Translations under genes and position numbers: made by a program
Source: Acidobacteriota bacterium
GTDB lineage: Bacteria; Acidobacteriota; Vicinamibacteria; Marinacidobacterales; Marinacidobacteraceae
DNA length: 64,000 bases
NCBI GenBank assembly: GCA_028877265.1
Contig: JAPPGX010000191.1
Location: 66,144 to 130,143 of the forward strand
Direction of reading: 5' to 3'
Shown here: piece after piece, positions 18,267-54,386 of the stretch
How the letters are laid out: every line of letters starts with the position of its first letter
Numbering within the stretch: the stretch's first letter is position 1
The notes under the pieces: model-generated
What the model was told of the DNA's origin: nothing
Database searches by the model: none
What the model saw: the letters and a program-made list of their open reading frames with translations, nothing else

Positions 18267-18309
18267 CCTTGACGGCACTGTCGTTCCTTCCTATCCTGCT
18301 CGCACGAAG

Positions 18310-18462
18310 ATGAGGTCCAATACCAGTTTCTGGCAACGTCTTCCCGGCGCGAATCGCCCCGTCGTCAAGAAGATCGCCGGCGCGGCGTTCCTCTTCTTCC
18401 TGATCAAGGGCCTCGTCTGGCTCGGCGTGATTGCGGCCGGAGCGTGGGCCCTGACGCGGTAG
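18310..18462 (+). CDS. Possible small membrane protein (50 aa) with a C-terminal TM helix
   Basis: MRSNTSFWQRLPGANRPVVKKIAGAAFLFFLIKGLVWLGVIAAGAWALTR. It sits in an otherwise empty 200-bp gap and has no clear RBS, so it is speculative. Confidence 0.25.
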   Translation: MRSNTSFWQRLPGANRPVVKKIAGAAFLFFLIKGLVWLGVIAAGAWALTR

Positions 18463-18469
18463 CCACGAG

Positions 18470-19099: not shown

Positions 19100-19127
19100 G
19101 GCGCCAGGAGACGAAACCCGGGATCCG

Positions 19128-19472: not shown

Positions 19473-19572
19473 CCCTGGGCCGCGCGGCGGCGCGCGCTGC
19501 CGCGCCCGGCGGCAACGCATTTGCGCCGGCCCCCCGCCGCGACCCATATTCAGTCTGCGGGAGGCGACGGAC

Positions 19573-33206: not shown

Positions 33207-34916
33207 ATGAACAGAAAACGACTTTTTCTGACCATGGCGAGTGCGGGGTTGGGACTCGCGCTGCTGCTCGGACCGGTGCTCCATGAGCCCGCCGAAGGCG
33301 GCGGGATGAGCGTCAACGGGATGGTGGTGACTTCTCATCCGCTCGCCGCCCAGGCCGGGCTCCGGATGCTCCAGGCCGGCGGGAACGCCTTTGACGCGGC
33401 GGTGGCGAGCGCGGCCGTGAAGGCGGTCGTGGAACCCCTCATGTCCGGCCTCGGTGGCGTGGGCGGCTACGCGCTGATCCATGACGCCGAAAAGGGGGAG
33501 ATCCGGTCGGTGGACTTCATCGGTGCCGCGCCCGCAGCGGCCGAACCCGAGGCCTTCACTGCGGGCAGCCGTCTCTGGGACCGGACCCATCCCGCCCGCG
33601 ACAGCTTCCTGGCGCCGCTCGTTCCCGGAAATCTCGCTGGCTGGGCGGCGCTGCTCGAGGAATACGGCTCCATGTCCTGGGCGGAGGTCCTGGCTCCGGC
33701 GATCGAGTACGCCGAGGGTGGCTTCGCGGTGTCCCCGGCGGTTCACGGTCCATTCGGAAGCAGCGGTTTCGGCGCCGATGTCGCCCGCTATCCCTACGGC
33801 GCCAGCATCTTCTTCAAGGACGGGAAGCCTTGGCCCGTGGGCGAGGTCTTGAAGCAACCCGATCTGGCCAAGACCTTCAAGGCCATCGCCGCCGACGGGC
33901 CGGGGGCCTTTTATGGCGGGCCGATCGCGGAATCCGTCGTGAACTTCTTCCAGCAGAACGGGGGCATCCTCACCGTTGAGGACTTCGCGAACTACCGGGC
34001 GCGGTGGAGCGAGCCGCTCTCGACCACCTACCGCGGCTACACGGTGTACAGCAACCCCCCCGGCGGCTCGGGGATGACGATCCTGCAGACCCTGAACATC
34101 CTGGAGCAGTTCGACGTGCCGGCGCTCGAGCACAACTCCGAGGAGTTCGTCCATCTGGTTGCGGAAGCGATGAAGCTGGCCTTCGTGGACGAGGACACCT
34201 GGAACACCGGCAAGGACTACGCCGACATTCCGCTCGACCGGCTGCTCTCGAAGGAGTATGCGGAGCAGCAGGCGGCTCGGATCGATCTCTCCCGGGCACA
34301 GTTCCATGCGGCGGTCCGTCCCGAGAGCGACGCTCCCACCGCGGTGGAGCACACCACGCACCACACCGTGGTGGACAAGGACCACAACGTGGTGACGATC
34401 ACCCAGACGCTGATGCTCCCCGCCGGGGTGGTGGTGCCCGAGACCGGGGTCATATTCAACAACGGCATGTCCTACTTCAGCCTCGATCCGGAGAGCGTGA
34501 ACCTGATCGAAGGCGGCCAGCGCCCGCGCTTCGTGATGAGCCCGACGATCGTGACCCGCTACGACAAACCCTATTTCGCGCTCGGGTCGGCGGGCGGCTG
34601 GACGATTCCCCAGACGATCCTGCAGGTGCTGGTGCGGGCCCTCGACTACGACATGGACGCGGCGGCGGCGGTGGATGCGCCGCGTTTCGTTGTCCGCTAC
34701 CTGGCGAACTCGATTCCCTACATGGATGGGACCGACCTCGTGCTGGAGAAGGATTTCTCGGACGAGGTCCGGGAGGCGCTGAACGCCAAGGGGCACCGCC
34801 TCCGTGAGCCTCCCAACCGGATCGGGATGCTGAACGCGATCAGGATCTTCCCTGGCTCGGGAGTACTGTCCGGGGGGCCTGACAAGCGCCGCGAGGGGGC
34901 CGCGGCAGGCTGGTAG
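33207..34916 (+). CDS. ggt: Gamma-glutamyltranspeptidase
   Basis: It has a signal peptide. The N-terminal block is GGNAFDAAVASAAVKAVVEPLMSGLGGVGGYALIHD. The autoprocessing Thr context is TTHHTVVDKDHNVVTITQTL. The small-subunit block is GSAGGWTIPQTILQVL. Confidence 0.85.
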   Translation: MNRKRLFLTMASAGLGLALLLGPVLHEPAEGGGMSVNGMVVTSHPLAAQAGLRMLQAGGNAFDAAVASAAVKAVVEPLMSGLGGVGGYALIHDAEKGEIRSVDFIGAAPAAAEPEAFTAGSRLWDRTHPARDSFLAPLVPGNLAGWAALLEEYGSMSWAEVLAPAIEYAEGGFAVSPAVHGPFGSSGFGADVARYPYGASIFFKDGKPWPVGEVLKQPDLAKTFKAIAADGPGAFYGGPIAESVVNFFQQNGGILTVEDFANYRARWSEPLSTTYRGYTVYSNPPGGSGMTILQTLNILEQFDVPALEHNSEEFVHLVAEAMKLAFVDEDTWNTGKDYADIPLDRLLSKEYAEQQAARIDLSRAQFHAAVRPESDAPTAVEHTTHHTVVDKDHNVVTITQTLMLPAGVVVPETGVIFNNGMSYFSLDPESVNLIEGGQRPRFVMSPTIVTRYDKPYFALGSAGGWTIPQTILQVLVRALDYDMDAAAAVDAPRFVVRYLANSIPYMDGTDLVLEKDFSDEVREALNAKGHRLREPPNRIGMLNAIRIFPGSGVLSGGPDKRREGAAAGW

Positions 34917-35001
34917 CCGCCCGGGACCGCCGGCCTCTCTCGTTTCCGGACCCGCGTCCTCTGAAATAGACTCGGCTCATGGGGCTCGGCAGAATGTCCC
35001 G

Positions 35002-36531
35002 GTGGGCTTGAGGAATCGCGTTCTCCTGGCGGCGATCCTTCTTGGCGGGGGATTTGTGTTTCCGGCGGCGGGCGGTTGCGCCCTGCGGTCGGGAGGTTCC
35101 CCCGACCTGGCGCAGGAGGCGGCCCCCGAACTGCCCTCCGACTTTGCCGAGAATCCAGCCAGCGGAGCCCGCCAGGCGCAGGAGTGGTGGCGGGCGTTCG
35201 CCGATCCCGCGCTCGACCACGTGGTCGAATCGGTACTGGACTCCAATTTCTCCGTGGCGGAAGCGGTAGCGCGGGTCGAGCAGGCCCGAACGCGGGCCCG
35301 GCTGGCCGACGCGGCGATCCTGCCCACGGTCGGAGCGAGCCTCACCGCGGAAACCTTCGACCTGCCCACGAACGCCGCGATCGGCGCCCAACTCGAGGAC
35401 CTCGGTCTCGATTTCCCGCTGCCCGACCGGCTGGGCTTCCCGACCTATACCCTGGGCGCGGACTTTGCCTACGAAGCGGATTTCTGGGGCCGCGTCCGGC
35501 ACACCGCACTCGCGGCGGGATCCGAACTGCTGGCCTCGGAGTTCGACCTGCGGGTCGCCCGCATCGGCATCCTCGCCGAGACGATCTCGGCCTACTTCGA
35601 AATCGGCCATCTCCGGCAACAACTCGCCATCGCTCGAGGGCACGTGGAACTGCTCGAGGAACGCGAGCGGCTGGTCGAGAGCCGCTACGAACGTGGGCTT
35701 GCCGTCTCGCTCGAACTGCACGGCGTGCGTCAGGCTCTCTCGAGCGCCCGGGCCGGCGTGCCGCAGGTCGAGAATCAACTCGCCGAGACCGAGTCGCGGC
35801 TCGCCGTGCTGCTGGGAGGCTACCGGGAGGATGTCGCGGCGATCCTTCCCGAATCCCTCTCCCCGGAATCTCCAGCCGAACCGGTGCCCGCAGGCATTCC
35901 GGCCGACCTCCTTTCGCAGCGCCCGGACGTGCAGGCCGCGGGTCACCGGCTGGAAGCCGCCGGACACACCGTCGAAGCCCGTCGGGCCGCGTTGATGCCG
36001 CAGCTTTCGCTCTCCGGATCCATTGGACTCCGGAGTACGGACGCCGGAGGCCTCTTCGACGTCAAGCAGTGGTTCACGAACCTCGCCGGCAACCTCCTTC
36101 GTCCGGTGTTCGACGGCGGCCGGCTCGCGAGCGGCGTGGAACTGGCCGAGGCCCGCTTCGACGAGTTGGCGGCGGCCTACGGCCGGACCATCGTTACCGC
36201 GGTCAACGAGGTGGAAGCGGCCCTGGCCACCCTCAGGAACGAAGGCCGGCGGCAGGAATCTCTCGCCGCGCAGCACGAGGAGGCCCGCGCCTCCGTCGAA
36301 GCTCAGTCCAGGCGCTATGAGGCGGGCATCAGCGGCTATGGCGATCTGCTCGATGCGAATGCCAGACTGCTGGATGCGGAATCGGCGCTCGCGGGTTCGG
36401 CGCGGAACCTGGCGCTCGCCCGCCTCGCCATCCACCGGGCTCTGGGGGGCGCCTGGACCGCCCCGGACGAGATGGCCAGCGCGCCGGCGAGCACGCCGGA
36501 TGCCCGCGCCAAAGGACCGGCCGACCGATGA
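35002..36531 (+). CDS. RND efflux system outer membrane factor lipoprotein (NodT/OprM family)
   Basis: Lipobox FPAAGGC. It has two tandem TolC-like repeats (SVAEAVARVEQARTRARLADAAILPTV..., coiled-coil segments, LALARLAIHRALGG). Confidence 0.85.
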   Translation: MGLRNRVLLAAILLGGGFVFPAAGGCALRSGGSPDLAQEAAPELPSDFAENPASGARQAQEWWRAFADPALDHVVESVLDSNFSVAEAVARVEQARTRARLADAAILPTVGASLTAETFDLPTNAAIGAQLEDLGLDFPLPDRLGFPTYTLGADFAYEADFWGRVRHTALAAGSELLASEFDLRVARIGILAETISAYFEIGHLRQQLAIARGHVELLEERERLVESRYERGLAVSLELHGVRQALSSARAGVPQVENQLAETESRLAVLLGGYREDVAAILPESLSPESPAEPVPAGIPADLLSQRPDVQAAGHRLEAAGHTVEARRAALMPQLSLSGSIGLRSTDAGGLFDVKQWFTNLAGNLLRPVFDGGRLASGVELAEARFDELAAAYGRTIVTAVNEVEAALATLRNEGRRQESLAAQHEEARASVEAQSRRYEAGISGYGDLLDANARLLDAESALAGSARNLALARLAIHRALGGAWTAPDEMASAPASTPDARAKGPADR

Positions 36532-37745
36532 ATCGAACGAAGGGATTCATCCTGGCGGCGATCATCCTGCTGGGATCGTTCGGGATCGCAACCCTGCTGA
36601 TCGCGCAGCGGCCGGAGCCCGAGCGGCGCGAACCTCCCTCCCGGATTCCGTTCGTCGTCACGGCGCCCGCGGTCGCGGGTTCGGGGCCGATCCCGGTCCA
36701 CGGCGCCGGGACGGTCCGGCCCCGCGTCCAGGTGGAGGTGGCCGCCGGGGTGAGTGGACGGGTCGTCCGGGTTGATCCGGGCTTCGAGAGCGGCGGCCGG
36801 GTCAGCGAGGGTCAGGCGCTCTTCCGCCTCGACGACGCCGACTACCGCTTCCGGGTGGAGCAGGCCCGTTCCGGCGTCGCCGTACAGCAGGTGGAACTGC
36901 TGAAGGTCGAGGAGGAAGCGCGGATCGCCCGCGAGCAGTACGAAGCGTTCCAGAGCCGCCGTGGCGCCGCCGGGGACGCGGAAGCGAGTCCCCTGGCGCA
37001 CTGGGAGCCGCAGCTCGAGGCGGCGCGGGCCGGTGTGGAACGGGCCCGCGCGCTCCTCGCGGAAGCCGAACTCCTGCTCGCGCGAACCGAAGTTCGGGCG
37101 CCCTTCGACGCCGTGGTGCGCTCCGAGAGCGTCGGGGTCGGACAGTTCGTGACCGCAGGGGTCGGCGTCGGCCGGATTTACGCCTCCGATGCGGTCGAGA
37201 TCGTCGTCCCGCTGTCCGACGCCGATGCGGCGCTCGTCCCGGGTCTGTGGGACCTGAGGCCGGGAGTCGCGGATCGTCGGGCGGCGGCCCGGGTCACCGC
37301 GGACTACGGGACCGGCGCCTATGCCTGGGACGGGTACGTGGACCGGGTCGAGGCCGCACTGGATGAAACGACGCGCACCCTCGATGTGATCGTGCGCGTT
37401 CCGAACCCCTTCACGGGTGGTTCCCGGGTGCAAGCGGGAGAAGCGAGCGCGGACGCCGGATCCGCGCCGCCGCTCCTGATCGGCCAGTTCGCGAACGTCG
37501 AGATATCGGGGATCGCGCCGGAGGAGTACTTCCGGATCCGGCGGCTGGGGCTCCGGCCGGGCAACGAGGTCTGGGCGGTGGACGGCGAGGCGGTGACCAT
37601 CGTTCCGGTCCGCGTGCTGCAGCGCTTCGACGACACCGTCTACGTCACCGGCGGGCTGCAGGAAGGCCAGGAGGTAGTCCTGAGTGGCATTCAGTTCGCG
37701 ACCGAGGGACTGAGGGTGCGGACCGCCGCGAACCCGGACCCTTGA
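36528..37745 (+). CDS. RND efflux periplasmic adaptor (membrane fusion protein, HlyD family)
   Basis: There is a 4-bp overlap with the OMF gene. It has an N-terminal TM anchor. The biotinyl/lipoyl-like hairpin is GVSGRVVRVDPGFESGGRVSEGQALFRLDDADYR. The coiled-coil is AVQQVELLKVEEEARIAREQYEAF. Confidence 0.85.
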   Translation: MNRTKGFILAAIILLGSFGIATLLIAQRPEPERREPPSRIPFVVTAPAVAGSGPIPVHGAGTVRPRVQVEVAAGVSGRVVRVDPGFESGGRVSEGQALFRLDDADYRFRVEQARSGVAVQQVELLKVEEEARIAREQYEAFQSRRGAAGDAEASPLAHWEPQLEAARAGVERARALLAEAELLLARTEVRAPFDAVVRSESVGVGQFVTAGVGVGRIYASDAVEIVVPLSDADAALVPGLWDLRPGVADRRAAARVTADYGTGAYAWDGYVDRVEAALDETTRTLDVIVRVPNPFTGGSRVQAGEASADAGSAPPLLIGQFANVEISGIAPEEYFRIRRLGLRPGNEVWAVDGEAVTIVPVRVLQRFDDTVYVTGGLQEGQEVVLSGIQFATEGLRVRTAANPDP

Positions 37746-37854
37746 ACCTGCGGGACGTTGTAAGGCCCGGAGCGCAGGTCGATCGCCCGCAGTCGGATCC
37801 GCCGGGGTGGGGCGGAGGAGGAAGGACCTTGGGCGAGAATGCCGGTCAGGACGC

Positions 37855-38850
37855 ATGAGTGAAGACGTGCTCTCCCCGTTCCCGGAGGGTTGGTATTTCG
37901 TTACCACCCGGGGATCACTGGAGAAGGCGAGGCTCATCCAGAAGACCTGGATGGGAAAGGACATCGTCGTCTGGTGCGACGACGCCGGCGGAATCTCCGT
38001 GGCCGAGTCGGTCTGTCCTCACCTGGGGTCCGAACTGGGCCCCGCCGCCGGCGGCCGAGTGCGGGATGGCCGTCTCGTGTGTCCTTTTCACGGCTACGAG
38101 TTCGACGTCAGCGGGCAATGCGTCGCCACGCCCTTCGCCCCGCCGCCGAAGACCGCGAGGCTGAGGTCGTTCGAGACTCGGGAGGTCCTGGGCATCGTCT
38201 TCGCCTGGTGGGGAATCGACGGACGGCCCCCGCAGTGGAGCCTTCCCGAGGACCCGCCGGCCGGCGCCGACTGGTGCGAACCGGCGTTCCGGACTCTCCG
38301 GTTTCGGGGGCACCCCCAGGAAACGAGCGAGAACGCCGTGGACATGGCGCACCTCCGGTACGTGCACGGCTACGGCAACGTCGGCCGGGTCGGCAAGGTA
38401 ACGGTGGACGGCGCGTATCTGCGGAGCTGCTTTGATTTCAAGCGCACCCAGCGCATCGCCGGAGCCATCAATCTCACCTTCGACGTCTCCGCCACCGCGC
38501 ATGTCGTCGGACTCGGATACTCGCTCGTGGAGTTCCACGAGCGCTCCATTGGAATGGACGGACGCCTCTGGGTCCTTGCGACGCCCGTCGACGGCACGCT
38601 CATCGACCTGGTGCTGGTCGGACAGTTGCGAAGAATCCGGAAACCGAAGCGGCTGATCGTCGGGTTGCGGTTCCTGCCGCCTGCTCTCCGTACCGGGACC
38701 ATGAACAAGCTGATGCTGTTCTTCCAAAGGCACGACGTCATGCAGGACGTGGAGATCTGGAGCCGGAAGCGGTACCGGTCGCGCCCGAGCCTCAGCCGGG
38801 CCGACGGCGAGATCGGGTTGTACCGGCGCTACTGCAGGCAGTTCTACTAG
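37855..38850 (+). CDS. Rieske [2Fe-2S] non-heme-iron oxygenase (KshA/SdmA/PAO-like ring- or sterol-hydroxylating oxygenase family)
   Basis: ATG at 37855. Rieske motif CPHLG...(19 aa)...CPFHGY. Mononuclear iron motif ENAVDMAHLRYVHG (D-x2-H-x4-H). It is about 330 aa. It is inserted between the MFP and RND pump genes. Confidence 0.8.
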   Translation: MSEDVLSPFPEGWYFVTTRGSLEKARLIQKTWMGKDIVVWCDDAGGISVAESVCPHLGSELGPAAGGRVRDGRLVCPFHGYEFDVSGQCVATPFAPPPKTARLRSFETREVLGIVFAWWGIDGRPPQWSLPEDPPAGADWCEPAFRTLRFRGHPQETSENAVDMAHLRYVHGYGNVGRVGKVTVDGAYLRSCFDFKRTQRIAGAINLTFDVSATAHVVGLGYSLVEFHERSIGMDGRLWVLATPVDGTLIDLVLVGQLRRIRKPKRLIVGLRFLPPALRTGTMNKLMLFFQRHDVMQDVEIWSRKRYRSRPSLSRADGEIGLYRRYCRQFY

Positions 38851-38872
38851 CGCGGCCAGGCGCCCGCCTGGC

Positions 38873-40252
38873 TCAGGCGCTCCGGAACCGCCAGCCGTAC
38901 ATCACCCGGCCGTAGAAGTTGAACCACTTTCTGGCCTCCGGGTCCTCGAACGGATAGTCCGCGCCGAGCTGTCTCGCCGTGACGAGGCCGGACACGAAAC
39001 AGGTCTCCTGGCTGTTGACCAGGGTGTGCGCGCCACAGTGCCAACTCCGCCGCTTTCCCTGGACGAAGCGAAACAACTGGGTCAGGAAGGCGACGTGAGG
39101 CACGTCGTGCACGATGTGCTGAAACCACCACCTCTTGACGATCCTGCTCTCGTCGATACGGCTGATCGGGTTGTAGGTCACGAGACACGGCTTGTCCGAC
39201 GTGTTCGCCCAGGGCTGCTGGTTGTGCATGATGTAGGTGATCTCGTAGTTGTCGGGCCGCGCGCCGTACTGCTCGATGTGGTTGCTCCGGGTGGCGAGCG
39301 GCCTGGCCTCGTTGTCGGGGAGGACCGAGGCGTCCGAATGCACGACCGTGTGGTTGTGCAGTTCGCTTTCGTACCGGATCGAGGAGAGGAGCCAACCCTC
39401 CAGCCGCGTCGGCCTGTCGAGGAGCATCAGCGTCTGGTTCGCGTTGCACGCGAAGACGACTTCGTCGAAGGTTTCGGTCCTTCCGTCCTCGTCCTCCACG
39501 ACAACCTCGTTACGGCGCCGGTGGACCCTTCGCACCGGCCGGTTCAGATAGATCTTCTCGCGAAAGGCTGCGGACAGATCCCGGTAGATCCGCCGGGTGC
39601 CCTGATCCCAGGTCTGCATCGGCGTCGCGGTCTCGATGTCGAAGAAGTCCAGGTACCGCGAAAAGAGCGACGCCGGCATGTCGAACACGTTCGTCGCCAT
39701 CAGGAAGTTGACGAACATGGGCTTCAGGACCTTGTACCGGAAGTCCCCCGAGTACCTTCCCAGGTTCAGCAGCGCTCCCATGCTGACGTAGTTGAACGGG
39801 TTAAGGGAGCTGAGCAGCTTCGACCTCGAGACGTTGAGCCGGCCGAACCACTTCAGACGTCTCAGGAGACGCTGGAACTTCTGGATTTCCGGTTGCAGTT
39901 GCCTCCTGATGTCGGAGTCGAAGTCGTGGGCATAGATTCCGCCTCGATACTTCACGCTGTAGTTGAACCGCGTTTCGAGCAGCTCGATGCCGTGCTGTTG
40001 CATGAGCAGGACGAAGTGGTGGTATGCCGACGGTATGCACGCGGTGACCGAGATATCGAACGGCACCGTGCTGCCGTCGTCCTGCGGCATGTCCGCAGTG
40101 ATCGCATTGCCGCCGAGCTGCGCCTGCGCTTCGAAGAGCCGAAAATCGAAACGGTCCCGGTGGCGGTTGAGCGCCCACGCCGTCCCGAGCCCCGAGGCGC
40201 CCCCACCGACAATGGCAACCCTTCTCGGCGCGCCGCCCTTCGCTTCACCCAC
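38873..40252 (-). CDS. FAD/NAD(P)-binding amine-oxidase-like oxidoreductase (COG2907-type)
   Basis: The Rossmann motif RRVAIVGGGASGLGTAWAL is followed by FEAQAQLGGNA. The C-terminal flavin-contact block WHCGAHTLVNSQETCFVSGLVTARQLG matches the W-x-C-G-A-x-T...QE...SG pattern of the family that classically pairs with CMAS-type methyltransferases. Confidence 0.75.
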   Translation of the reverse strand: MGEAKGGAPRRVAIVGGGASGLGTAWALNRHRDRFDFRLFEAQAQLGGNAITADMPQDDGSTVPFDISVTACIPSAYHHFVLLMQQHGIELLETRFNYSVKYRGGIYAHDFDSDIRRQLQPEIQKFQRLLRRLKWFGRLNVSRSKLLSSLNPFNYVSMGALLNLGRYSGDFRYKVLKPMFVNFLMATNVFDMPASLFSRYLDFFDIETATPMQTWDQGTRRIYRDLSAAFREKIYLNRPVRRVHRRRNEVVVEDEDGRTETFDEVVFACNANQTLMLLDRPTRLEGWLLSSIRYESELHNHTVVHSDASVLPDNEARPLATRSNHIEQYGARPDNYEITYIMHNQQPWANTSDKPCLVTYNPISRIDESRIVKRWWFQHIVHDVPHVAFLTQLFRFVQGKRRSWHCGAHTLVNSQETCFVSGLVTARQLGADYPFEDPEARKWFNFYGRVMYGWRFRSA

Positions 40253-40431
40253 ATTCCTACTCTACCTTTGGGGTGCGGCCGCCCCGTCCGCTCGCCGCCG
40301 CCGCAGTAGGCGGTCCGGGGACCCTGCCGACCCCTTGCCCGCCCGCTCCATCGACTAGACTCTGACCCGGACCATCCAGTGGCGGCGGATCGGTGGGGCT
40401 GTCGAGCCGCCTCGGCTGGAGGTTGAGCACC

Positions 40432-42450
40432 ATGAGCGAGGGCACCCGGTTTCCGATCCGAATCGCCGAGGAGTTGATCCTCCTCATGCTGGACGAGCAG
40501 AGCGGCTACCTCGAGATGGTTCCGAACTGGGACTTCTCCTGTGTCATGGCCGGGGCCGTGCTCGCCGACCTGGCCCTGGAGCGTCGCATCGAGACCGACC
40601 TGGAGCGGTTGTACCTGGTCGATCCCTCACCGACCGGAGATGAGTTGCTCGACCCGACGCTCAAGGACATCGCCGAATCCGACGAAAAATCGGACGCCCA
40701 GTTCTGGATCGAACGGAACACCCGCCAAGCCGACGAAATCGTCGCAGCCGCCCTCGAGCGCCTGGTGGAGCGGAACATCCTTACCCACGAGAGCGGCGGA
40801 TTCTGGGGGCTCTCGCGCTCTGTCGCCCGTTCAGGGACTTTTCCGACCCAGGCTGTCGCGACCCGCCGGGAATCCAAGGTGAGGGTCCTGAGCGTCATCC
40901 TGAACGACGAGATCCCGGACCCGCGGGACGCCATCCTGGTCGCGCTGATGCACACCTGCGGCGGCTTCAAGCTGCTGCTGGAGGAAGAGGACTACGAAGA
41001 GCGGCTCGCCCGCATCGAACTCGTCGCCAAGCTGGACCTCATCGGACGGACGGTCGCCGCCGCCGTGAAGGACAGCACGGCGAGGCCCAAGACCCGTCGC
41101 GTCGTTCAGACGAAGCCCATTCCCAAGCCTGGGTATCTCGTACTGCTACAGCGCGACTTCCTCTCCGGCAACATCTCGAAGGCGATGTACGGCATGTATC
41201 GAAAACACGGGCCGGTCGTCAGGATGCCCTTCAAGATCCGCGGCAAGCCCGTCGTTTCGTTGATGGGTGCCGATGTCAATCACTGGGTCAATCGGCACGG
41301 ACGGTTCTATCTCCGCTCGAAGGACTACATCGAAGGGCTGGAGCACGCGTTTGGCGCATCCCGGAGTCTCCCCGGAATGGATGGCGCCGAACACTATCGA
41401 ATGCGCAGGGAACTCCAGACTGCGTATTCCCGCGCCACGCTCGCGCAGCGGCTGCCGGAGCTGATCGACGACTGCCGGAAATCGCTGAGCCGTTGGAAGG
41501 AAGGGGATGTCTTCCGCGCCACCGAGAGCTTTCAGAACCACATCAGCAGTCAGATCTCCAATTTCGCGATGGGAGTGGATTGCAGCCACTATGTCGACGA
41601 ACTGTTGGCCTTTGAACACCGTGCACTGATAACGCGGGTCCAGGGCGCATTGCCGGATTTCATGCTGTCCACCCCAAGAATGAAACGGTATGGGAAGCGT
41701 GTCAGGGAACTCCAGGAGGCGATCACCGCGGGACACACGACGGCGCTGCGCAAGGGAAAGCCCCGGGATCTGGCCGACGCGATTCTCGATCTCCACAAGA
41801 GGGACCCGCAGTTCCTTCCCGAAACGGACCTCACCTTTCCCTTCGTGGCTTCCATGGTTGCGAGCATCTATCTCGGCAGCGGACTGGCCTTCACTGTTTA
41901 CAACATGGTTCGAAACCCGGACGTGTACGCGAGGGTCCGGAGCGAGGCCGAGTCGCTGTTCGGCAACGGTCGTGAACTTGCGGGAGATGACTTCAATCAC
42001 CAGAGCATCGACGTCACGGTGCGTCTCTGCATGGAATCCTCGCGTATGTACCCGGTGATTCCATGGCAGTTGAGAACGGTCATGAACGAGTGCATCGTCA
42101 GTGGTTACGAGATACCGCCGAAGACGATGTTGCTGATTTGCCAGACTGCGCCGCACTATGCCGAGGATCTGTACCGGGATCCGTTGAAGTTCGATATCGA
42201 TCGGTACTTGCCGGACCGGGCCGAGCATCTGCAACCGGGCGCCTATGCGCCCTACGGCCTGGGTACGCACATGTGCCTCGGCCACCGGTGGGTGGAACTT
42301 CAGATGGCCGTCAACGTCCTGCTCATCGCGCATCACCTGCAGCTCGAAGTGGTGCCCGGCAACTACAAGATGGGAATCAATCCGTTCCCGACCTTGGCCC
42401 CCAACAGGAAGCTGAAGTTCCGCGTCGCCGGGGTCCCGCGTCCCGTGTGA
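40432..42450 (+). CDS. Fusion protein: N-terminal GPP34/GOLPH3-like lipid-binding domain (about 220 aa) plus C-terminal cytochrome P450
   Basis: ATG at 40432 is preceded by GGAGG (the track's 40393 start is GTG). GPP34 blocks: IAEELILLMLDEQSGYL, SCVMAGAVLADLAL, LLDPTLKDIAESDEKSDAQFWIERN, DPRDAILVALMHTCGGFKLL. P450 blocks: ExxR ESSRMYP, PERF-like FDIDRY, heme loop YGLGTHMCLG. The I-helix region (YLGSGLAFTV) lacks the usual acid-alcohol pair. Confidence 0.8.
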   Translation: MSEGTRFPIRIAEELILLMLDEQSGYLEMVPNWDFSCVMAGAVLADLALERRIETDLERLYLVDPSPTGDELLDPTLKDIAESDEKSDAQFWIERNTRQADEIVAAALERLVERNILTHESGGFWGLSRSVARSGTFPTQAVATRRESKVRVLSVILNDEIPDPRDAILVALMHTCGGFKLLLEEEDYEERLARIELVAKLDLIGRTVAAAVKDSTARPKTRRVVQTKPIPKPGYLVLLQRDFLSGNISKAMYGMYRKHGPVVRMPFKIRGKPVVSLMGADVNHWVNRHGRFYLRSKDYIEGLEHAFGASRSLPGMDGAEHYRMRRELQTAYSRATLAQRLPELIDDCRKSLSRWKEGDVFRATESFQNHISSQISNFAMGVDCSHYVDELLAFEHRALITRVQGALPDFMLSTPRMKRYGKRVRELQEAITAGHTTALRKGKPRDLADAILDLHKRDPQFLPETDLTFPFVASMVASIYLGSGLAFTVYNMVRNPDVYARVRSEAESLFGNGRELAGDDFNHQSIDVTVRLCMESSRMYPVIPWQLRTVMNECIVSGYEIPPKTMLLICQTAPHYAEDLYRDPLKFDIDRYLPDRAEHLQPGAYAPYGLGTHMCLGHRWVELQMAVNVLLIAHHLQLEVVPGNYKMGINPFPTLAPNRKLKFRVAGVPRPV

Positions 42451-42517
42451 CCGCGGGGGCGCGTAACGGCGCGGCCGACCCCGGAGTGTTTCTCAGGACT
42501 CGCTTCCACACGTATCG

Positions 42518-45500
42518 ATGAGTTCCGATCCAGGCAACCACGCGGAACCCCGTGGACCGATCGCCTACATGGCGAGCAACGGCGTGGCGTCCAACTTGCT
42601 GATGTTCGGCATCCTCGCGGTGGGCCTCGTGTCGCTGACCGGCCTCGAGCAGCAAGCGTGGCCCACGGTGCCTTTCAACCAGTTCGAGATCTCGGTGCCG
42701 TTCCCGGGCGCAACGCCCCAAGAGGTGGAGGAGGCCATCGTCGTCAAGATCGAGGATGAGGTCAGGGGATTGGCGGAGGTGAAGACGGTCCGGTCCGTAG
42801 CGGCCCCGGGAATGGCGTCCGTCAGGGTCGAAGTCAACTCCGGTACGGACATGGGCGCGAAGAGGGACGAAATCGAGTCGGCGGTCGCGCGGATTCAGAC
42901 CTTCCCGGGTGGGGCCGAGCGGCCCCAGATCCGTGAAATGACGAACGCCCAGAGCATGATGCGTCTCGTCCTCTACGGCGACGTTCCAGAGCGCTCGCTG
43001 AAGGAGCTCGCCCACCGGATCGAAGACGATCTCGCGTCGCTCCCGAACGTGTCCCTGGTCGAGACCAGCGGGGTGCGCAACTACGAGATCTCGATCGAAG
43101 TGCCGCTCGAGCGGCTGCGGGCCCTTGGGCTCACGCTGACCGACATCGCCAACACGGTTCGCCGCGGTTCCCTGGACCTGTCGGCGGGCAGCATCGATAC
43201 CGCGCAATCCCGGGTGCGGATTCGGACCCTCGGCCAGAGCTACGACCAGCAGGACTTCGAGGACATCGTCGTCCTCGGCCGCGCCGACGGCACGGTGGTG
43301 CGCCTGGGTGAGATTGCCGAGGTGCGCGACGGCTTCCACGACTCAGGTTTGCTGGTGCGGTACCAGGGCGAGCCAGCCGTGTTCGTCGAGGTTTCGCGAG
43401 CCGATGGCGAGAGGGTGATGGACGTGGCGCGCGCCGTTCGGGAACACGTCGCGAACGAGATAGCGCCCTCGCTCCCGGACGGCATGGGCATCGACATCTG
43501 GAACGACGACTCTTCGGTCTTCTCGGAACGTGCCCTCCTTCTCCTCAAGAATGGAGCCTTGGGGCTGTTGCTGGTCCTGATCGCGCTGGGTCTGTTTCTC
43601 CAGCTTCGGCTGGCGTTCTGGGTCGCCGTCGGCCTCGGCGTTTCCGCGATCGGCGCCCTGGCCGCCATGATGGTGTTCGACATCCCGCTCCACGAGATTT
43701 CGCTCTTCGCCTTCGTGCTCGCCATCGGCATCGTCGTGGACGATGCGATCGTCGTGTCGGAGCACATCCACGAGGAACGAAAGCGCGGCACGCCGGGACT
43801 CGCGGCGGCGATCCGGGGCGCGCGACGCATCAAGGTGCCGCTGGTCTTCGCGGTGCTGACGACCATCGTGGCGTTCCTTCCGCTGCTCTTCATACCCGCG
43901 GGGTTCGGAGAGGTGTGGAAGGCACTGCCGATCGTCGCTATTGCCACGCTGCTCTTTTCGCTGGTCGAATCGCTCCTGGTGCTGCCCAATCATCTGTCCC
44001 ATCATCTGCACGGCCCGGATTGGGCGCCCCGGACGGGCATGGAGCGGTTCGTCGCCCGGATCCAGAATCGGGTCGATTCCTGGTTGAACCGCTTCATCCA
44101 GGGACCCGTGGACCGCGGGATCCAGTTGGCGACGGACTGGCCCGGGGTGACGGTTTCGGCGGCCGTTGCGCTGCTCGTCCTGAGCATTTCCCTTCTTCCG
44201 GCCGGCATCGTTCCCACCACCTTCGCGACGAAGGTCGAAGGCGACTTCGCGATCGCCACCCTTGAGATGCCGGAAGGAACGACCGCGCCGCAAACGTACG
44301 CCGTGGCGCAACACCTGGAATCGGCCGGCCGCCGGGCCGTCGAGCGGCTCTCCCAAAGCCGGCCCGCTGACGCGCCTCCCCTCTTGTCCGGAGTTACGGT
44401 CGTCGTCGGCCAGCGGTCGCGGCTCGAAACCGGAGGCCTCAATCCCTCGCCCACTTTGAACCCGGAAGCCAATGTCGCGACCATCGAGTTCAAGCTCCTG
44501 AGCGCCCAGCTGCGGAGCATCACTTCGGGAGACGTCGTGCAGGCATGGCGCGAGGAGGTGGGTGTCCTGCCTCAGGTACGCGCGGTCACCTTCATCAGCG
44601 AGATCTACACATTGGGCAACCCCGTCGAGGCGGCGCTGTCCCACCCGGATCCGGAACGCCTCAACGAGATCGCGAATTCCACCGTCGCCGGCCTCGGCAG
44701 GGTCGGAGGCGTCTTCGACATACGCTCGGATCACACTCCCGGGATCCCGGAAGTCCAGGTGGGACTACTTCCCGAAGCGCGCACCCTGGGCCTCACGCTG
44801 GATGATCTTGCCCGGCAGACGCGAGCGGCCTTCTTCGGTGAGGAGGCCGTGCGGGTGCAGCGGGGACGTGACGAAGTTCGGGTCTACGTCCGGTTACCCG
44901 AGGAGCAACGGAACGCGATCACCGACGTCGAGAGTTACCGGCTCCGGACGCCAACTGGCGCCGACGTGCCGGTCAGCCGCGTGGCTTCGCTGAGTTCGGG
45001 CACCTCGCCGCCGGCCATCCGGCGCCAGGACGGCCAGCGGATTGTGACCGTTACCGCGGATGTCGATCCGAGTGTGACTTCCGCCGCGACCGCCAACGAC
45101 ATTCTGGAGAACACCATCCTGGCGGGGCTCATCGCGGAGAACCCGGAACTGACCTATACCTTCGGAGGGGAACAGCAACAACAGCTCGACTCCCTGGGCG
45201 GTCTCTATCGCGGATTCGTGATCGCGCTGCTCCTGATCTTCGCGCTGCTGGCCATTCCCCTGCGCTCCTACACGAAACCGTTCATTGTCATGGCCATCAT
45301 CCCGTTCGGGTTCGTCGGGGTGATCCTGGGTCACTGGATGCTGGGGGTCGCCGTGAGCGCGGAGTCCTTCGTCGGGATCTTCGGGTTGGCCGGCGTGGTC
45401 GTCAACGACTCCCTGGTGATGATCGATTTCACCGACCAGAAGCTCCGGGACGGCATCCCGGTGCGAACCGCGATCATCGAGGGCGCGAAGGGACGCTTCC

Positions 45501-45721
45501 GCCCGATCATGCTGACTTCCCTGACGACCTTCCTGGGTTTCACCCCCCTGATTCTCGAGGACGCGATTCAGGCGCAGTTCTTTGTTCCCTTCTCCGCCTC
45601 GATCGGTTGCGGCATTCTCTTCACCACGGTGATCATCATGTTTCTGGTGCCCGCGCTTTCCTCGATCCACCTGCGCCTTGGCTCGGCCCGGCAACAACTG
45701 GCCGCCGAGGGTTCCGGTTGA
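42518..45721 (+). CDS. RND efflux transporter permease (AcrB/HAE1-like, 12 TM, about 1067 aa)
   Basis: It has an N-terminal TM followed by the large periplasmic loop (PFPGATPQEVEEAIVVKIEDEVRGLAEVKTVRS). Conserved TM4-like block: AFVLAIGIVVDDAIVVSEHI. Its second half is a repeat of the first. Confidence 0.9.
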   Translation: MSSDPGNHAEPRGPIAYMASNGVASNLLMFGILAVGLVSLTGLEQQAWPTVPFNQFEISVPFPGATPQEVEEAIVVKIEDEVRGLAEVKTVRSVAAPGMASVRVEVNSGTDMGAKRDEIESAVARIQTFPGGAERPQIREMTNAQSMMRLVLYGDVPERSLKELAHRIEDDLASLPNVSLVETSGVRNYEISIEVPLERLRALGLTLTDIANTVRRGSLDLSAGSIDTAQSRVRIRTLGQSYDQQDFEDIVVLGRADGTVVRLGEIAEVRDGFHDSGLLVRYQGEPAVFVEVSRADGERVMDVARAVREHVANEIAPSLPDGMGIDIWNDDSSVFSERALLLLKNGALGLLLVLIALGLFLQLRLAFWVAVGLGVSAIGALAAMMVFDIPLHEISLFAFVLAIGIVVDDAIVVSEHIHEERKRGTPGLAAAIRGARRIKVPLVFAVLTTIVAFLPLLFIPAGFGEVWKALPIVAIATLLFSLVESLLVLPNHLSHHLHGPDWAPRTGMERFVARIQNRVDSWLNRFIQGPVDRGIQLATDWPGVTVSAAVALLVLSISLLPAGIVPTTFATKVEGDFAIATLEMPEGTTAPQTYAVAQHLESAGRRAVERLSQSRPADAPPLLSGVTVVVGQRSRLETGGLNPSPTLNPEANVATIEFKLLSAQLRSITSGDVVQAWREEVGVLPQVRAVTFISEIYTLGNPVEAALSHPDPERLNEIANSTVAGLGRVGGVFDIRSDHTPGIPEVQVGLLPEARTLGLTLDDLARQTRAAFFGEEAVRVQRGRDEVRVYVRLPEEQRNAITDVESYRLRTPTGADVPVSRVASLSSGTSPPAIRRQDGQRIVTVTADVDPSVTSAATANDILENTILAGLIAENPELTYTFGGEQQQQLDSLGGLYRGFVIALLLIFALLAIPLRSYTKPFIVMAIIPFGFVGVILGHWMLGVAVSAESFVGIFGLAGVVVNDSLVMIDFTDQKLRDGIPVRTAIIEGAKGRFRPIMLTSLTTFLGFTPLILEDAIQAQFFVPFSASIGCGILFTTVIIMFLVPALSSIHLRLGSARQQLAAEGSG

Positions 45722-45758
45722 CGGGGCGGGCGGACGAAGAGCCCGTCGGGGCGCCGGG

Positions 45759-46814
45759 CTAGCCCGAAAGGGGCCGGCGCGCCACGAAACAGTAGAGCGG
45801 GGTGAAGATCCCCGTCTTGCCCCCCGCGACGTAAGCGTCCGCGGTCCGGTCCAGGAGAGCCACCACCTCCGCCGAGCCCCTCGGGAACGCACCGAAGAAC
45901 TCGGCCAGCCGGACTCCCCACCGCAGCGCCTTGCGGCCCATCGGAATCCGGCGGAACGCGCTGCCGGGCAACCCGCGGAGGGTTTCCATGGGCTGATACC
46001 ACGGCGTGTCCTGACGGTGCCCGTCGGCGGCGAGGTCCTCACCCTCCAGGACTTCGAATCCTGCGGTTGCGAGCGCCCGGTTGACCTCCCCGAACGTCGC
46101 AATGTCCTTGAGCGCGATGCCGTGCATGAGCTCCTGCTTGATGGCGCGGTGCCGGTCGTCCCCCGGGTCGTACAGGTCCGTCATGCACATTTCCTGGCCC
46201 CAGAAGAGGGCTCCAGGTTTCAGCACTCGGTAGATCTCGGCGAACGCGCCCGCCTTGTCGTCCGCGTGGCAGGTTGATTCGATCGCGTAGCCGCGGTCGA
46301 AGGTCCGGTCCGCGATCGCGCTCATGTCCATGAAGCTGCACTGGAGACAGTCGGTCTGGCCGGCGAGCCCCGCGGCCTCGTTCAAGCGCCTTGCGTTGTT
46401 GCACTGGACTTCGCTGGCGTTGATTCCGACAACGCGGACTCCAACCTCCCTCGCCACGCGGCGCATCGGACCGCCGATCCCGCATCCGACATCCACGACG
46501 GTCATGCCCGGACGCAGTTCGAGCCTGGACATCATGAGTCTCTGGTGCCGGATCTTGGAGTCCTCCAGGCTTTCGCCGGGCGACAGCGGCGCAAAGTGCA
46601 GGGACTCTCCCCAACCCATGACCATGAACTCGGTGCAAAGGTCGTAGTACTCCTTGACGGTCCGCGTGTGGTCGTACCCCCCGTCGGCATCCCCCCGGGG
46701 GGATGCCCTGTCGGTCCATCCTTCGAAGTCCCGCACGCGGTTCGTGACGTTTGATCCGCCGAACGCAGTTCTCAACCCATCGGATAGCCCACGGATTTGT
46801 CCGGTGAACTTCAC
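45759..46814 (-). CDS. Sterol 24-C-methyltransferase (Erg6/SMT) homolog, SAM-dependent
   Basis: GTG start at 46814. It shows block-by-block similarity to yeast Erg6 as recalled from memory. [21 protein letters not shown] matches [37 protein letters not shown] matches [25 protein letters not shown] matches [21 protein letters not shown] matches [28 protein letters not shown] matches [27 protein letters not shown] matches [32 protein letters not shown] matches LVAGGKSKLFTPMMLFVARKP. Confidence 0.8.
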   Translation of the reverse strand: [351 protein letters not shown]

Positions 46815-47144
46815 GGCGTGTTCTGGCCCGGTTCCGGCTCTCGCAGGCCACCCGGACGTGCGAAACCGGTTCTTCGCACCGGGGGCCGTTGAAGACGGGG
46901 CCCCGCGGGTCGCGGTTCCGCCAGCGGTCGCGGGGACGCACGGCGGATAGCCGCCACGTCAGCCGGCACCCGGACTTCCCTCCCCCCCAAGACAGTGGAT
47001 AGTCTAGTGGAGGCGTTGCGGACCCCGGGAGCACGCCGAAGGAGATGGACGGATGCGCAGGAAACGCCAACTCTCGCTGTTTCCGGCCGTATCCGGGGTG
47101 CTCTCTGGACGCCCGGACCACCGCCGCGAAGGAGCCGCTGCCGG

Positions 47145-48851
47145 TTGGTGACGTTTCGCTATCTCCTTGTTGCGGGCCTCCTCGGGTTCGCCGGTTGTGC
47201 GCCGGGGCCGGCGGAAACCCGTTTCGAGGTTTCCTTCCCGGCGGAGCTTCACGAAGGACCGATCACCGGCAGGGCCTACGTGGTCATCGGGACCGAGCCG
47301 GACATCGCGGCGATCCGGCAGCGGAGCCTCGGTCACCAGCCGGTGTCCGCCGCGCGCGGCGTCCCGTTCTTCGCGGTGGACGTCGAGGGGCTGGCGTCCG
47401 GCCAACCCGCGGTGATCGACGGTTCCACCCTGGGATACCCGGTTGAGCGCCTCGCCGAACTCCCCGCCGGGGACTACTACGTGCAGGCGCTCCTCGTCCC
47501 GTACACCGAGTTTCACCGCGCCGACGGGCACGTGATCTGGGCCCACCGGGACGAGTGGGAAGGGCAGCACTTCAACTGGGCCCCCGGCACCCTGCTCAGC
47601 GACGCGGAGAGAGTCCGGCTCGATCCGGCGAGCGGCTTCTCCTTCCGCCTGCGCCTCGTCGAGGAACTTCCCGAGATCGAGGTGCCGCCCGACGACATGT
47701 GGGTGCGGCGGGTGAAATTCGAGAGCCCGATGCTCAGCGAGTTCTGGGGCCAACCGGTCTATCTCGGAGCCACCGTGCTGCTTCCGGAGGGATACGACTC
47801 GCATCCGGACACCTGGTACCCAACGGTGTATCAGCAGGGCCATTTCAGCCTCGACCCGCCGTTCGGGTTTTCGGCGGACCCGGTGGAGGAATCGGCAGCC
47901 GCCCGCGCCGCAAGGCTCGAACGCGGGGTCGAGAACGGTTTCGAGTTCTTCGAGTCCTGGCGGTCTCCAGGCTTCCCGCGGATGGTCGCGGTCACCTTCC
48001 AGCACCCGACCCCTTATTTCGACGACTCCTACGCGGTGAATTCGGCCAACAACGGCCCCTACCAGGACGCCCTCATGACCGAGTTGATCCCTTACCTCGA
48101 GGAGCGGTTCCGGATGATCCCGGAGGGGTGGGCGCGCCTGCTCACCGGCGGATCCACCGGCGGATACGAAGCGCTCGCCCTCCAGGCGCACCGGCCGACC
48201 GACTTCGGGGGCGCCTGGGTCTTCTATCCGGATCCCATCGACTTCCGGCGGTTCTTCCTGATCAACATCTACGAGGACGAGAACGCGTTTCGCGCGCCCG
48301 GCTGGAGTGACGGGCAACTCGCTCCCGAGCGCTACGCGTTCCGCGACGATGACGGCCAGCCGCTGCAGAGCATCCGCGAGCTGAGTCGACTGGCGTCCGT
48401 CCTCGGCAGCCGCGGGAGGTCGACCGACTATCTGGAAGCTTGGGAAGCGTCCTTCGGGCCCGTCGGCGAGGACGGCTACCCCCGTCCTCTCTGGGACAAG
48501 CGGACCGGTGTCATCGACCGCGAGGTGGCGCGCTACTGGCGGGAGAACGGCTACGACCTCCGCCACTACCTCGAGACGAACTGGGGAGAGATCGGCCCCG
48601 ACCTGGTGGGCAAACTCCACTTCATCTGCGGGGACATGGACAACTACTACTTCAACCACCCGGTCTATCTCATCGAGGAATTCCTGGAGGCCACCGAGAG
48701 CCCCCACTACGGCGGTTCGTTCCGCTACGGGCGGCCCAACAAGGGACACGGCTGGACGCCGATCACGAACGCGGAGCTGTTCCGGGAAATGGCGGCGCAC
48801 CTGACGCGGAACGCGCCGCCGGGCGCCGACACCCGCGGGTGGAAGTACTGA
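47145..48851 (+). CDS. Putative esterase-family alpha/beta hydrolase lipoprotein (enterochelin-esterase/esterase-D-like)
   Basis: TTG/GTG start at 47145-47148 is preceded by GGAG. Lipobox LLGFAGCA. The serine-hydrolase nucleophile elbow LLTGGSTGGYEAL lies within an alpha/beta region. It has an N-terminal beta-sandwich region. Confidence 0.55.
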   Translation: MVTFRYLLVAGLLGFAGCAPGPAETRFEVSFPAELHEGPITGRAYVVIGTEPDIAAIRQRSLGHQPVSAARGVPFFAVDVEGLASGQPAVIDGSTLGYPVERLAELPAGDYYVQALLVPYTEFHRADGHVIWAHRDEWEGQHFNWAPGTLLSDAERVRLDPASGFSFRLRLVEELPEIEVPPDDMWVRRVKFESPMLSEFWGQPVYLGATVLLPEGYDSHPDTWYPTVYQQGHFSLDPPFGFSADPVEESAAARAARLERGVENGFEFFESWRSPGFPRMVAVTFQHPTPYFDDSYAVNSANNGPYQDALMTELIPYLEERFRMIPEGWARLLTGGSTGGYEALALQAHRPTDFGGAWVFYPDPIDFRRFFLINIYEDENAFRAPGWSDGQLAPERYAFRDDDGQPLQSIRELSRLASVLGSRGRSTDYLEAWEASFGPVGEDGYPRPLWDKRTGVIDREVARYWRENGYDLRHYLETNWGEIGPDLVGKLHFICGDMDNYYFNHPVYLIEEFLEATESPHYGGSFRYGRPNKGHGWTPITNAELFREMAAHLTRNAPPGADTRGWKY

Positions 48852-48911
48852 CCGGCGGTCGTCCGCCGTTCGGGCTGAGACTGCGGCTCCCCGGAGCGTC
48901 GGTTCCAGAGC

Positions 48912-50171: not shown

Positions 50172-50186
50172 TCCGGGGGAACGAAC

Positions 50187-54018: not shown

Positions 54019-54386
54019 GGACAGTCTGCCCGCGGCCCTATTCCGGGGCGGAGCTCGGCGCCGGCAGCACGGTGCAGCCGCTGCATCCCGGGACCCGGAC
54101 CTGCAGGACTCCGGATTCTCTCTCGCCGGCCTCCGTTTCTCCAACACGCCGCACGAACGTCAGGCGGTACCAGACCCGGTGGCGGGCTTCGATGCAGTCG
54201 AGCGGCCGCCGGAACCCGGTGGCGCGGGCGAAGTAGAGCCCGCCGGTTGCAGCCGCCAAGCCGGAAAGGATGTCGTCCTCCCTGCGGGGCGAGACGGTTC
54301 GGACACGGCTTTCATGGGAGGTGGAGGAAAAGGCCCGGAACGGGTTCGACTCGTCGCGTTCGGCCGTCAGGATGCGCTACTCGTGG

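Follow-up and report, generated by a model that had tools for sequence, protein, structure and literature searches.

An Erg6/SMT subfamily with a replaced pocket signature, linked to a putative GPP34-P450 lipid-tailoring cassette in bacteria of sponge and coral microbiomes

Which lipid is methylated by a bacterial sterol methyltransferase (SMT) homolog that lies beside an efflux pump, two oxygenases and an oxidoreductase? This question is raised by a gene at positions 45759..46814 of a 64,000-nucleotide stretch from an Acidobacteriota bacterium (GenBank assembly GCA_028877265.1, contig JAPPGX010000191.1, positions 66,144 to 130,143 of the forward strand), the whole of which is called the window here. 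We report that the encoded protein falls in a distinct branch of the Erg6/SMT family, in which the residues around the substrate have been exchanged as a set, and that its gene is accompanied in several bacterial phyla by the same partner genes. Based on these observations, we propose that the subfamily probably methylates a sterol-type lipid within a mobile tailoring-and-transport cassette.

The open reading frame (ORF) listing contains an SMT-family ORF of 351 aa with a GTG start on the minus strand at these coordinates, in agreement with the original prediction, a reading of the same DNA from its letters, whose quoted peptide blocks are all found in the translation. The GTG is the earliest possible start after the upstream stop, and its use is supported by the homologues, whose alignment begins at residue 1 of the protein. 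The frame has a coding-type GC content by codon position (GC1/2/3 = 0.65/0.53/0.83) and the protein has more than 2000 homologues, of which the closest is 96% identical at 100% coverage (E = 2.6e-230), and we thus consider it a real gene. It is also well conserved within its clade, with a mean column identity of 79% and about 110 invariant columns in 32 sequences. A spacer of 37 bp separates the stop codon of the SMT gene (45759-45761, minus strand) from the end of the neighbouring RND gene (45721, plus strand); since the two genes lie on opposite strands with their 3' ends facing, they are convergent, as had been predicted. Neither a promoter/terminator scan nor RNA folding gave a signal in this spacer (z = 0.83). 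The gene and its family motifs, with the residue changes in Erg6 numbering, are as follows.

45759..46814, minus strand: SMT-family S-adenosylmethionine (SAM)-dependent C-methyltransferase, with class-I methyltransferase domains and Sterol_MT_C, 37% identical to Erg6
46593..46631, minus strand: Region I, residues 62-74 (Erg6 79-91), with Y81M, Y83M and F89L
46467..46493, minus strand: SAM-binding motif I / Region II, residues 108-116, DVGCGIGGP, with invariant D, G, G, G and P
46263..46289, minus strand: Region III, residues 176-184, YAIESTCHA, with E179 (Erg6 E195), invariant
46194..46214, minus strand: Region IV, residues 201-207, GALFWGQ (Erg6 GGTFAVY), with the signature residues A218, L219, W221 and Q223
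46113..46118, minus strand: I233-A234 (Erg6 D249-G250)
45771..45959, minus strand: Sterol_MT_C domain, residues 286-348, 59 bits, covering profile positions 3-65 of 66

From its sequence, we assign the gene to the Erg6/SMT family. Pfam detects class-I methyltransferase domains (Methyltransf_11, Methyltransf_25 and CMAS) in the protein together with the SMT-specific C-terminal domain (PF08498), the latter well above its cut-off of 21.7 bits, and pairwise BLASTP aligns it with yeast Erg6 over its full length (332 aa, E = 3e-72). The numbering of the Erg6 query reproduces 28 landmark residues quoted by Brown & Welander. The similarity lies within the limits by which Brown et al. 2023 (PMC10070321) searched for SMT homologues, i.e., at least 30% identity and E < 1e-50 to Erg6. 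The SAM motif DxGxGxxGP is present as DVGCGIGGP and is invariant across the clade described below, as are YAIE (Erg6 Y192-A-I-E195) and G201 (Erg6 G217), and the C-terminal-domain residues G333, L341, G352, F357 and P359 are present in the window protein. The Erg6 homology originally proposed is therefore upheld, since the likeness extends from SAM motif I through Region III to the C-terminal domain and is not confined to the SAM-binding fold. No NCBIfam model reached its cut-off for the protein, and RebM, MitM and similar enzymes ranked first in a sequence search of the PDB, in which the sole chain named '24-sterol C-methyltransferase' (6f5z_A, 231 aa) gave a weak match (E = 4.5e-07); the PDB thus offers no SMT structure to compare with. 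The nearest solved folds to an AlphaFold2 model are TleD, AtmM/RebM, SpnF, MitM and geranyl-diphosphate C-methyltransferase, which would suit a methyltransferase acting on olefins or natural products but does not discriminate between the readings weighed below.

The departure from canonical enzymes is found in the pocket. Taking as a yardstick the 25 residues listed by Brown & Welander 2025 as conserved in all active SMTs, the window protein retains 24, the exception being F89, which is Leu throughout the clade; T78 and L341 differ in some of the other members. Region I reads M-V-M-GWG, compared with the Y81-E-Y83-GWG of Erg6, i.e., the GWG is kept and the aromatic signature, which has a role in cation-pi stabilization, is lost. 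The original prediction had listed a YEYGWG-type region among the recognizable Erg6 blocks; SAM motif I, Region III, the C-terminus and the GWG hold, but both aromatics of that region (Y81 and Y83) are Met and F89 is Leu.

The replacements in the clade comprise Y81M, F89L, G218A, T219L, W221, Y223Q, D/N249I and G250A. All 81 clade sequences have M81, L89, L219 and I249-A250, A218 occurs in 80/81 and Q223 in 79/81, and the signature also extends to 36 more homologues with identities as low as 40%. Position 83 is more variable, being Phe or Trp in 72/81 members and Met in 2/81; the window protein has the rare Met there (M66, 46617-46619). The signature was contrasted with about 110 representatives of 50%-identity clusters covering the whole SMT family, of which nearly all those outside the clade have [DE]FYE[YFW]GWGxSFHF (with Y81 and F89), Y223 and [DN]249-G250. 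A canonical-motif SMT of an Acidimicrobiia sponge symbiont (P0129) provides a contrast case, on contigs of only 3-4 kb.

In docked-sterol models of SMTs, residues 81 and 249 lie at most 5 Å from the sterol (Brown & Welander 2025). Because this published docking places them near the sterol side chain, the exchanges in the clade are likely to represent a remodelling of the pocket. The same study found Gly249 to be necessary for propylation and Phe81/83 to promote it. Considering that I249 is invariant in the clade and that the window protein has Met at both 81 and 83, where 24-isopropyl formation calls for Gly249 and for Phe at 81 and/or 83, we predict at most one methyl addition and do not expect 24-isopropyl products. 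Furthermore, F89 is invariant in every SMT assayed as active, and the enzymes of the second assayed batch all have Gly or a gap at position 249 (Brown & Welander 2025), and hence no clade member is among the published active SMTs. In a comparison of contig names, likewise, no assayed contig from a sponge metagenome in the accessible part of Supplementary Table 4 of Brown et al. 2023 matched a recovered clade locus. Of the label '24-C-methyltransferase homolog' given originally, the homology thus stands, but the C-24 reaction is not established for this branch, given that F89 is present in all assayed active SMTs.

In a neighbour-joining tree of 112 SMT-family representatives based on Kimura distances, the core clade was recovered in 300/300 bootstraps, as was a superclade formed by the core clade and three sister representatives. 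The sequences with M81, L89 and I249 accordingly resolve as a distinct monophyletic SMT subfamily. Relatives of the window SMT are encoded by 290 GTDB species genomes, and the best 80 of these, which are the loci counted below, cover at least five phyla, with 47 loci in Chloroflexota, 20 in Acidobacteriota, 9 in Gemmatimonadota, 2 in Gammaproteobacteria, and 1 each in an alphaproteobacterium and in Latescibacterota. A scan of 241 million metagenome records returned 34 loci only, which derive from Aplysina (JGIcombinedJ30088, Ga0209021), Petrosia (LXNJ) and Sarcotragus (LXNI) or carry prefixes not assigned to a source. Every source that could be identified is a microbiome assembly from a sponge or coral, and the subfamily has so far been found almost only there.

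SMT identity between groups can be high: bins of Gemmatimonadota and Gammaproteobacteria share up to 93%, and Acidobacteriota and Chloroflexota up to about 70%. Two loci in Gammaproteobacteria bins (L025, L027) and one in a Latescibacterota bin (L033) share 90-93% SMT identity with Gemmatimonadota loci, and their RND proteins are about 82% identical to that of the acidobacterial window, pointing either to very recent transfer between phyla or to contigs placed in the wrong bin. In one Dehalococcoidia genome, two clade SMT copies (L052 and L064) lie about 110 kb apart on contig CBDEGP010000002.1, and no cassette partners were found within the 10-kb flanks of either copy.

The genes around the window SMT are listed below.

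34900..36330, plus strand: OEP/TolC-like outer-membrane efflux protein of the RND pump
36321..37745, plus strand: HlyD-type membrane-fusion protein of the RND pump, present in 12/80 loci
37714..38850 (open frame; called product 331 aa), plus strand: Rieske [2Fe-2S] oxygenase with a KshA-type catalytic domain (Pfam Rieske and KshA_C)
38873..40261, minus strand: flavin adenine dinucleotide (FAD)-dependent oxidoreductase of the amine-oxidase/CrtI superfamily, LkcE-like (Pfam Amino_oxidase)
40366..42450 (open frame; called product 672 aa), plus strand: GPP34 (GOLPH3-like)-cytochrome P450 fusion
42518..45721, plus strand: AcrB-type RND permease (Pfam ACR_tran, 512 bits)
46995-48851, plus strand: esterase-like protein
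48879-50171, plus strand: MFS transporter
50172-51200, plus strand: proline racemase-family gene
52072-54159, minus strand: VWA-domain protein (Acidobacteria-specific model TIGR03436, 157 bits), in support of an acidobacterial host

Neighbours were sought by tblastn within 10 kb of the SMT. The GPP34-P450 fusion was found in 64/80 loci, the Rieske/KshA_C oxygenase in 56/80 and the FAD oxidase, at 69-97% identity, in 33/80. An AcrB-type RND pump (81-96% identity) accompanies the SMT in 27/80 loci, in Acidobacteriota, Gemmatimonadota and Gammaproteobacteria, and an MMPL transporter does so in 40/80, in Dehalococcoidia, with an LppX/LprAFG-type lipoprotein in 10 loci; one or the other transporter is present in 67/80. 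Across phyla, the order and orientation of the genes change and their adjacency is retained. Even in the most divergent superclade member (P0126, 41% identity), the GPP34-P450 gene directly follows the SMT. This linkage, kept across phyla and rearrangements, argues that the neighbours are functional partners. The esterase-like, MFS and proline racemase genes, which lie downstream and are divergent from the SMT, are conserved in the closest Acidobacteriota relatives only (3-6/80 loci) and therefore probably lie outside the cassette.

In Chloroflexota, the AcrB/HlyD/OEP pump is replaced by MMPL proteins with weak sterol-sensing/Patched matches (L057:7450-9966, plus strand; L045:17838-18707, minus strand), which looks like an envelope-appropriate swap around the same enzymes. 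Within the window, the GC content is 0.63-0.66 across the cassette (38001-46000) and 0.68-0.74 in most of the remainder, a dip compatible with a foreign origin. A Chloroflexota subset has reductases of the ERG4/ERG24 family beside the cassette, clustered with it in 6 loci, and a further copy lies on a Dadabacteria contig.

L062:16485-17630 and 17749-18891, plus strand: ERG4/ERG24 tandem, both copies Pfam-confirmed
L039:17470-18612 and 18734-19876, plus strand: ERG4/ERG24 tandem, one copy Pfam-confirmed and a neighbouring ORF of the same length
L120:10777-11916, minus strand: single ERG4/ERG24 copy on the Dadabacteria contig

No CYP51 or cyclase follows the ERG4/ERG24 genes at these three loci. 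The SMT-like protein of the Dadabacteria contig (P0127; L120, ENA ERZ26693581) represents a separate lineage with C81, R83 and I89, and its Region I, EFCERGWGQSIHF, also does not have the aromatic signature. Its gene lies between an MMPL gene with a sterol-sensing-domain match and a series of ERG4/ERG24, GPP34-P450 and FAD oxidase genes, and the loss of the Region I aromatics may be linked generally to GPP34-P450.

The partner enzymes give indications of the substrate. The Rieske neighbour matches Pfam KshA_C at 86.7 bits and KshA in the PDB (E = 3e-24), with an intact CxH..CxxH motif, and the FAD neighbour matches LkcE (E = 5e-27), with a GxGxxG motif and weak N-terminal matches to HpnE. The fusion joins PF05719 (117 bits) and PF00067 (124 bits) in a single ORF. 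Its P450 part has CYP46A1 (77 bits) and CYP51 structures (52-68 bits) as best PDB relatives; its I-helix AGHTT and heme loop PYGLGTHMCLG are CYP51-like, and the CYP51 signature GQHTS is absent. The closest solved relatives of the P450 and Rieske proteins thus include a cholesterol 24-hydroxylase (CYP46A1) and a 3-ketosteroid 9-alpha-hydroxylase (KshA). The fusion at 40366..42450, with an N-terminal GPP34 domain and a P450, fits the definition of GPP34_L, an architecture that a 2025 paper assigns exclusively to sponge symbionts (PMC11706023). The searchable literature returned no link between GPP34 and sterols, methyltransferases or RND pumps; the linkage to the SMT suggests a role for GPP34-P450 in lipid tailoring instead of, or besides, interference with phagocytosis.

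Genes for making sterols were also sought near the SMT. Pfam and NCBIfam scans of the approximately 35 ORFs of the 64-kb window detected no oxidosqualene cyclase (OSC), CYP51, ERG24 or SdmA, and a de novo sterol-synthesis cluster around the window SMT was accordingly rejected. The Rieske neighbour was considered as a candidate SdmA and was likewise rejected, as it scored 36.8 bits against NF052579 (cut-off 600) through its Rieske domain only.

Based on the family, we propose that the SMT would methylate a sterol-type lipid at an olefinic carbon, with SAM as the methyl donor and a carbocation as the intermediate. While the pocket residues are replaced as a set, the acid of Region III (E195), the SAM site and the C-terminal domain typical of SMTs are intact. 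We infer a sterol-type substrate from the ERG4/ERG24, KshA-like and CYP46/CYP51-like neighbours; it would probably be taken from the host or be the product of sterol genes elsewhere in the symbiont's own genome. Methylation would be one step of a horizontally mobile tailoring-and-transport cassette, in which the GPP34-P450 monooxygenase, the KshA-like Rieske oxygenase and sometimes ERG4/ERG24 reductases would be partners of the SMT, and the CrtI/LkcE-like FAD oxidoreductase may install or shift a double bond. Transport would be mediated by the AcrB/HlyD/OEP pump in diderm phyla and by MMPL, with or without an LppX-like lipoprotein, in Chloroflexota, in a direction that we can only infer. As for the acceptor carbon, C-24 is our tentative choice, with less than even confidence; another position of the sterol is somewhat doubtful, and an acceptor in a non-sterol lipid is quite unlikely.

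Several observations weigh against this proposal. With Leu in place of the F89 of all assayed active SMTs, the enzyme might fail to convert the standard substrates, or its substrates might not be sterols at all. The similarity of the partners to their sterol-acting structural relatives is only distant (77-89 bits), and about one fifth of the fully flanked loci have the SMT with no partners. In 118 loci (2.09 Mb), a scan limited to motifs detected neither of the triterpene/oxidosqualene cyclase motifs DCTAE or DxDDTA within 10 kb. The identities across phyla fit horizontal spread, but mis-binning of metagenome-assembled genomes (MAGs) could explain the most extreme values. Finally, the AlphaFold2 model is moderate and does not provide a pocket geometry (predicted local distance difference test, pLDDT, 70; predicted template-modelling score, pTM, 0.73; Region I pLDDT <50).

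An ordinary C-24 SMT of the Erg6/SMT1 type, adding one methyl group in de novo sterol synthesis, with cyclase, CYP51 and ERG24 encoded elsewhere in the genome and neighbours that are unrelated, would account for the retention of 24 of the 25 functional residues and of both domains. In soybean SMT1, Leu substitutions of the Region I aromatics remove the second methylation only, and M81 and L89 thus need not abolish methylation at C-24. ERG24-CYP51-LSS clusters are moreover present in sponge-symbiont MAGs of Dehalococcoidia, Acidobacteriae, Gemmatimonadetes and Gamma- and Alphaproteobacteria, in which sterol genes including SMT are often scattered over the chromosomes (Kelly et al. 2022, PMC9531527). 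However, F89 is invariant in all active SMTs, eight pocket positions have changed as a clade-invariant set, and the scan of the 118 loci detected no nearby cyclase motif. The linkage to GPP34-P450, Rieske, FAD oxidase and transporter genes, which persists across phyla and rearrangements, also argues against unrelated neighbours, and we consider this explanation doubtful.

Changed regiochemistry on a sterol is an alternative that we regard as rather unlikely. The methyl group would be added at C-26/C-27 of a delta-25 side chain (aplysterol or 26-methylstigmastane type), a cyclopropane would be formed, or the nucleus of a 3-oxo sterol would be methylated as by STRM-1, an SMT-family protein that has no Region I aromatics and performs a different sterol methylation. 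The positions that control the product (81, 249 and 217-223) are all replaced, relatives of the KshA-like partner act on 3-ketosteroids, and the clade occurs in sponge holobionts including that of Aplysina aerophoba, in which the 26-methyl sterol aplysterol is the major sterol; the literature explicitly calls the 26-SMT undiscovered. Yet the argument has only sequence behind it, some sponges with the clade give us no evidence of 26-methyl sterols, and mono-methylation at C-24 fits the data equally well. In its most specific form, the subfamily would be a sponge-holobiont SMT of non-canonical regiochemistry (C-26/C-27 on delta-25 sterols, or cyclopropane-forming) that works with GPP34-P450, Rieske and FAD enzymes on host-derived sterols, the product being returned to the host by RND or MMPL transporters; we hold this scenario to be decidedly improbable.

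The SMT-like triterpene methyltransferases of Botryococcus offer an analogy for an enzyme that acts on a non-sterol isoprenoid or another lipid (e.g., squalene-like or polyprenyl olefins), in which case the cassette would make and export a methylated, oxygenated non-steroidal lipid. Such a substrate would agree with the loss of the cation-pi aromatic signature of Region I, with an FAD partner of the CrtI/amine-oxidase superfamily that has weak N-terminal HpnE matches, with prenyl-olefin C-methyltransferases (TleD and geranyl-diphosphate C-methyltransferase) among the closest solved folds and with the absence of cyclase motifs nearby. It is made improbable by the ERG4/ERG24-family reductases that lie beside the cassette in two independent lineages, by the nearest characterized relatives of the partners, which act on sterols or steroids, and by the full conservation of Region III and the SMT C-terminal domain. 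That the ORF is miscalled, or is an SMT relic that has lost or is losing its activity, is very unlikely, because the loss of one of the 25 functional residues is set against the column conservation given above, which effectively refutes it, and against intact SAM and acid motifs, synteny across phyla and coding-type codon-position GC.

A bacterial SMT as such is known biology (Brown et al. 2023), and the view in the original prediction that SMTs are largely eukaryotic is outdated, as bacterial SMTs have been biochemically proven since 2023. The subfamily, its pocket signature and its partnership with a GPP34-P450 cassette appear to be undescribed. They are of interest because the oldest chemical evidence for animals is drawn from steranes alkylated at C-24 and C-26 (24-isopropylcholestane and 26-methylstigmastane), and the literature names no enzyme for the 26-methyl or other unusual side chains of sponge sterols. 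A methyltransferase branch of sponge and coral microbiomes with a rebuilt side-chain pocket is a concrete, cloneable candidate for such side chains. If non-canonical regiochemistry held true, bacteria would be a source of 'sponge' sterane biomarkers and the GPP34-P450 hallmark of sponge symbionts would gain a role in lipid metabolism. If the enzyme proved to be a plain C-24 methyltransferase, or inactive on sterols, this would still limit what symbionts contribute to host sterols. In either case, the linkage within the cassette offers an alternative function for GPP34-P450, in lipid tailoring instead of, or in addition to, the manipulation of phagosomes.

Compared with known systems, the window protein shares the class-I methyltransferase fold with TleD and geranyl-diphosphate C-methyltransferase, two enzymes that methylate isoprenoid C=C bonds via a carbocation, but it is only 18-27% identical to them and neither has the SMT C-terminal domain. 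The GPP34-P450 neighbour at 40366-42450 has the same architecture as GPP34_L, and both GPP34_L and the SMT clade are found in sponge microbiomes across many phyla; the paper describing GPP34_L (PMC11706023), however, proposes binding of phosphatidylinositol 4-phosphate (PI4P) and interference with phagocytosis, and is silent in its main text on sterols, methyltransferases and RND pumps. STRM-1 of C. elegans, which methylates C-4 (C-4-alpha) of 3-oxo sterols (PMC6997595), resembles the window protein in belonging to the SMT family and in having lost the Region I aromatic signature, in STRM-1 alongside a different sterol methylation. Yet STRM-1 has minimal identity to 24-SMTs, whereas the window protein has a much greater similarity to Erg6 and retains GWG..HF, and the only hint of a 3-oxo substrate here is the KshA-like neighbour.

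The SMT1/ERG6 KEGG orthologue (KO) is enriched in symbiont MAGs of Ircinia, and ERG24-CYP51-LSS clusters have been transferred horizontally across 10 phyla (Kelly et al. 2022, PMC9531527). These clusters and the cassette described here are both horizontally transferred sets of sterol-related genes, enriched in the same bacterial classes of sponge symbionts. The published clusters contain a cyclase and canonical CYP51 and ERG24 genes, whereas the cassette contains none of these, a subset of loci having tandem ERG4/ERG24 paralogues. Relative to S. cerevisiae Erg6 and plant SMT1, the window protein has 37% identity over the full length and keeps Regions II and III and the C-terminal domain, and the chemistry to be expected is likewise SAM-dependent methylation of an olefin; it differs from Erg6 in the altered Region I, in Region IV (GALFWGQ versus GGTFAVY) and in the change of D249-G250 to I-A.

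The closest comparison is with the metagenomic bacterial SMTs of Brown et al. 2023 (PMC10070321), many of them from sponge symbionts, of which 20/24 methylate desmosterol and/or 24-methylenecholesterol and three make 24-isopropyl side chains. The active enzymes of that set keep F89 and mostly have YEY/F in Region I, whereas the clade has M81, L89, I249 and a changed Region IV. Many of their genes cluster with OSC, CYP51, ERG24 and sdmAB, in contrast to the GPP34-P450, Rieske, FAD oxidase and transporter genes that surround the clade SMTs. Both sets belong to the same family and have the same pair of domains, and the window protein, like those enzymes, is bacterial and represented in sponge-microbiome assemblies.

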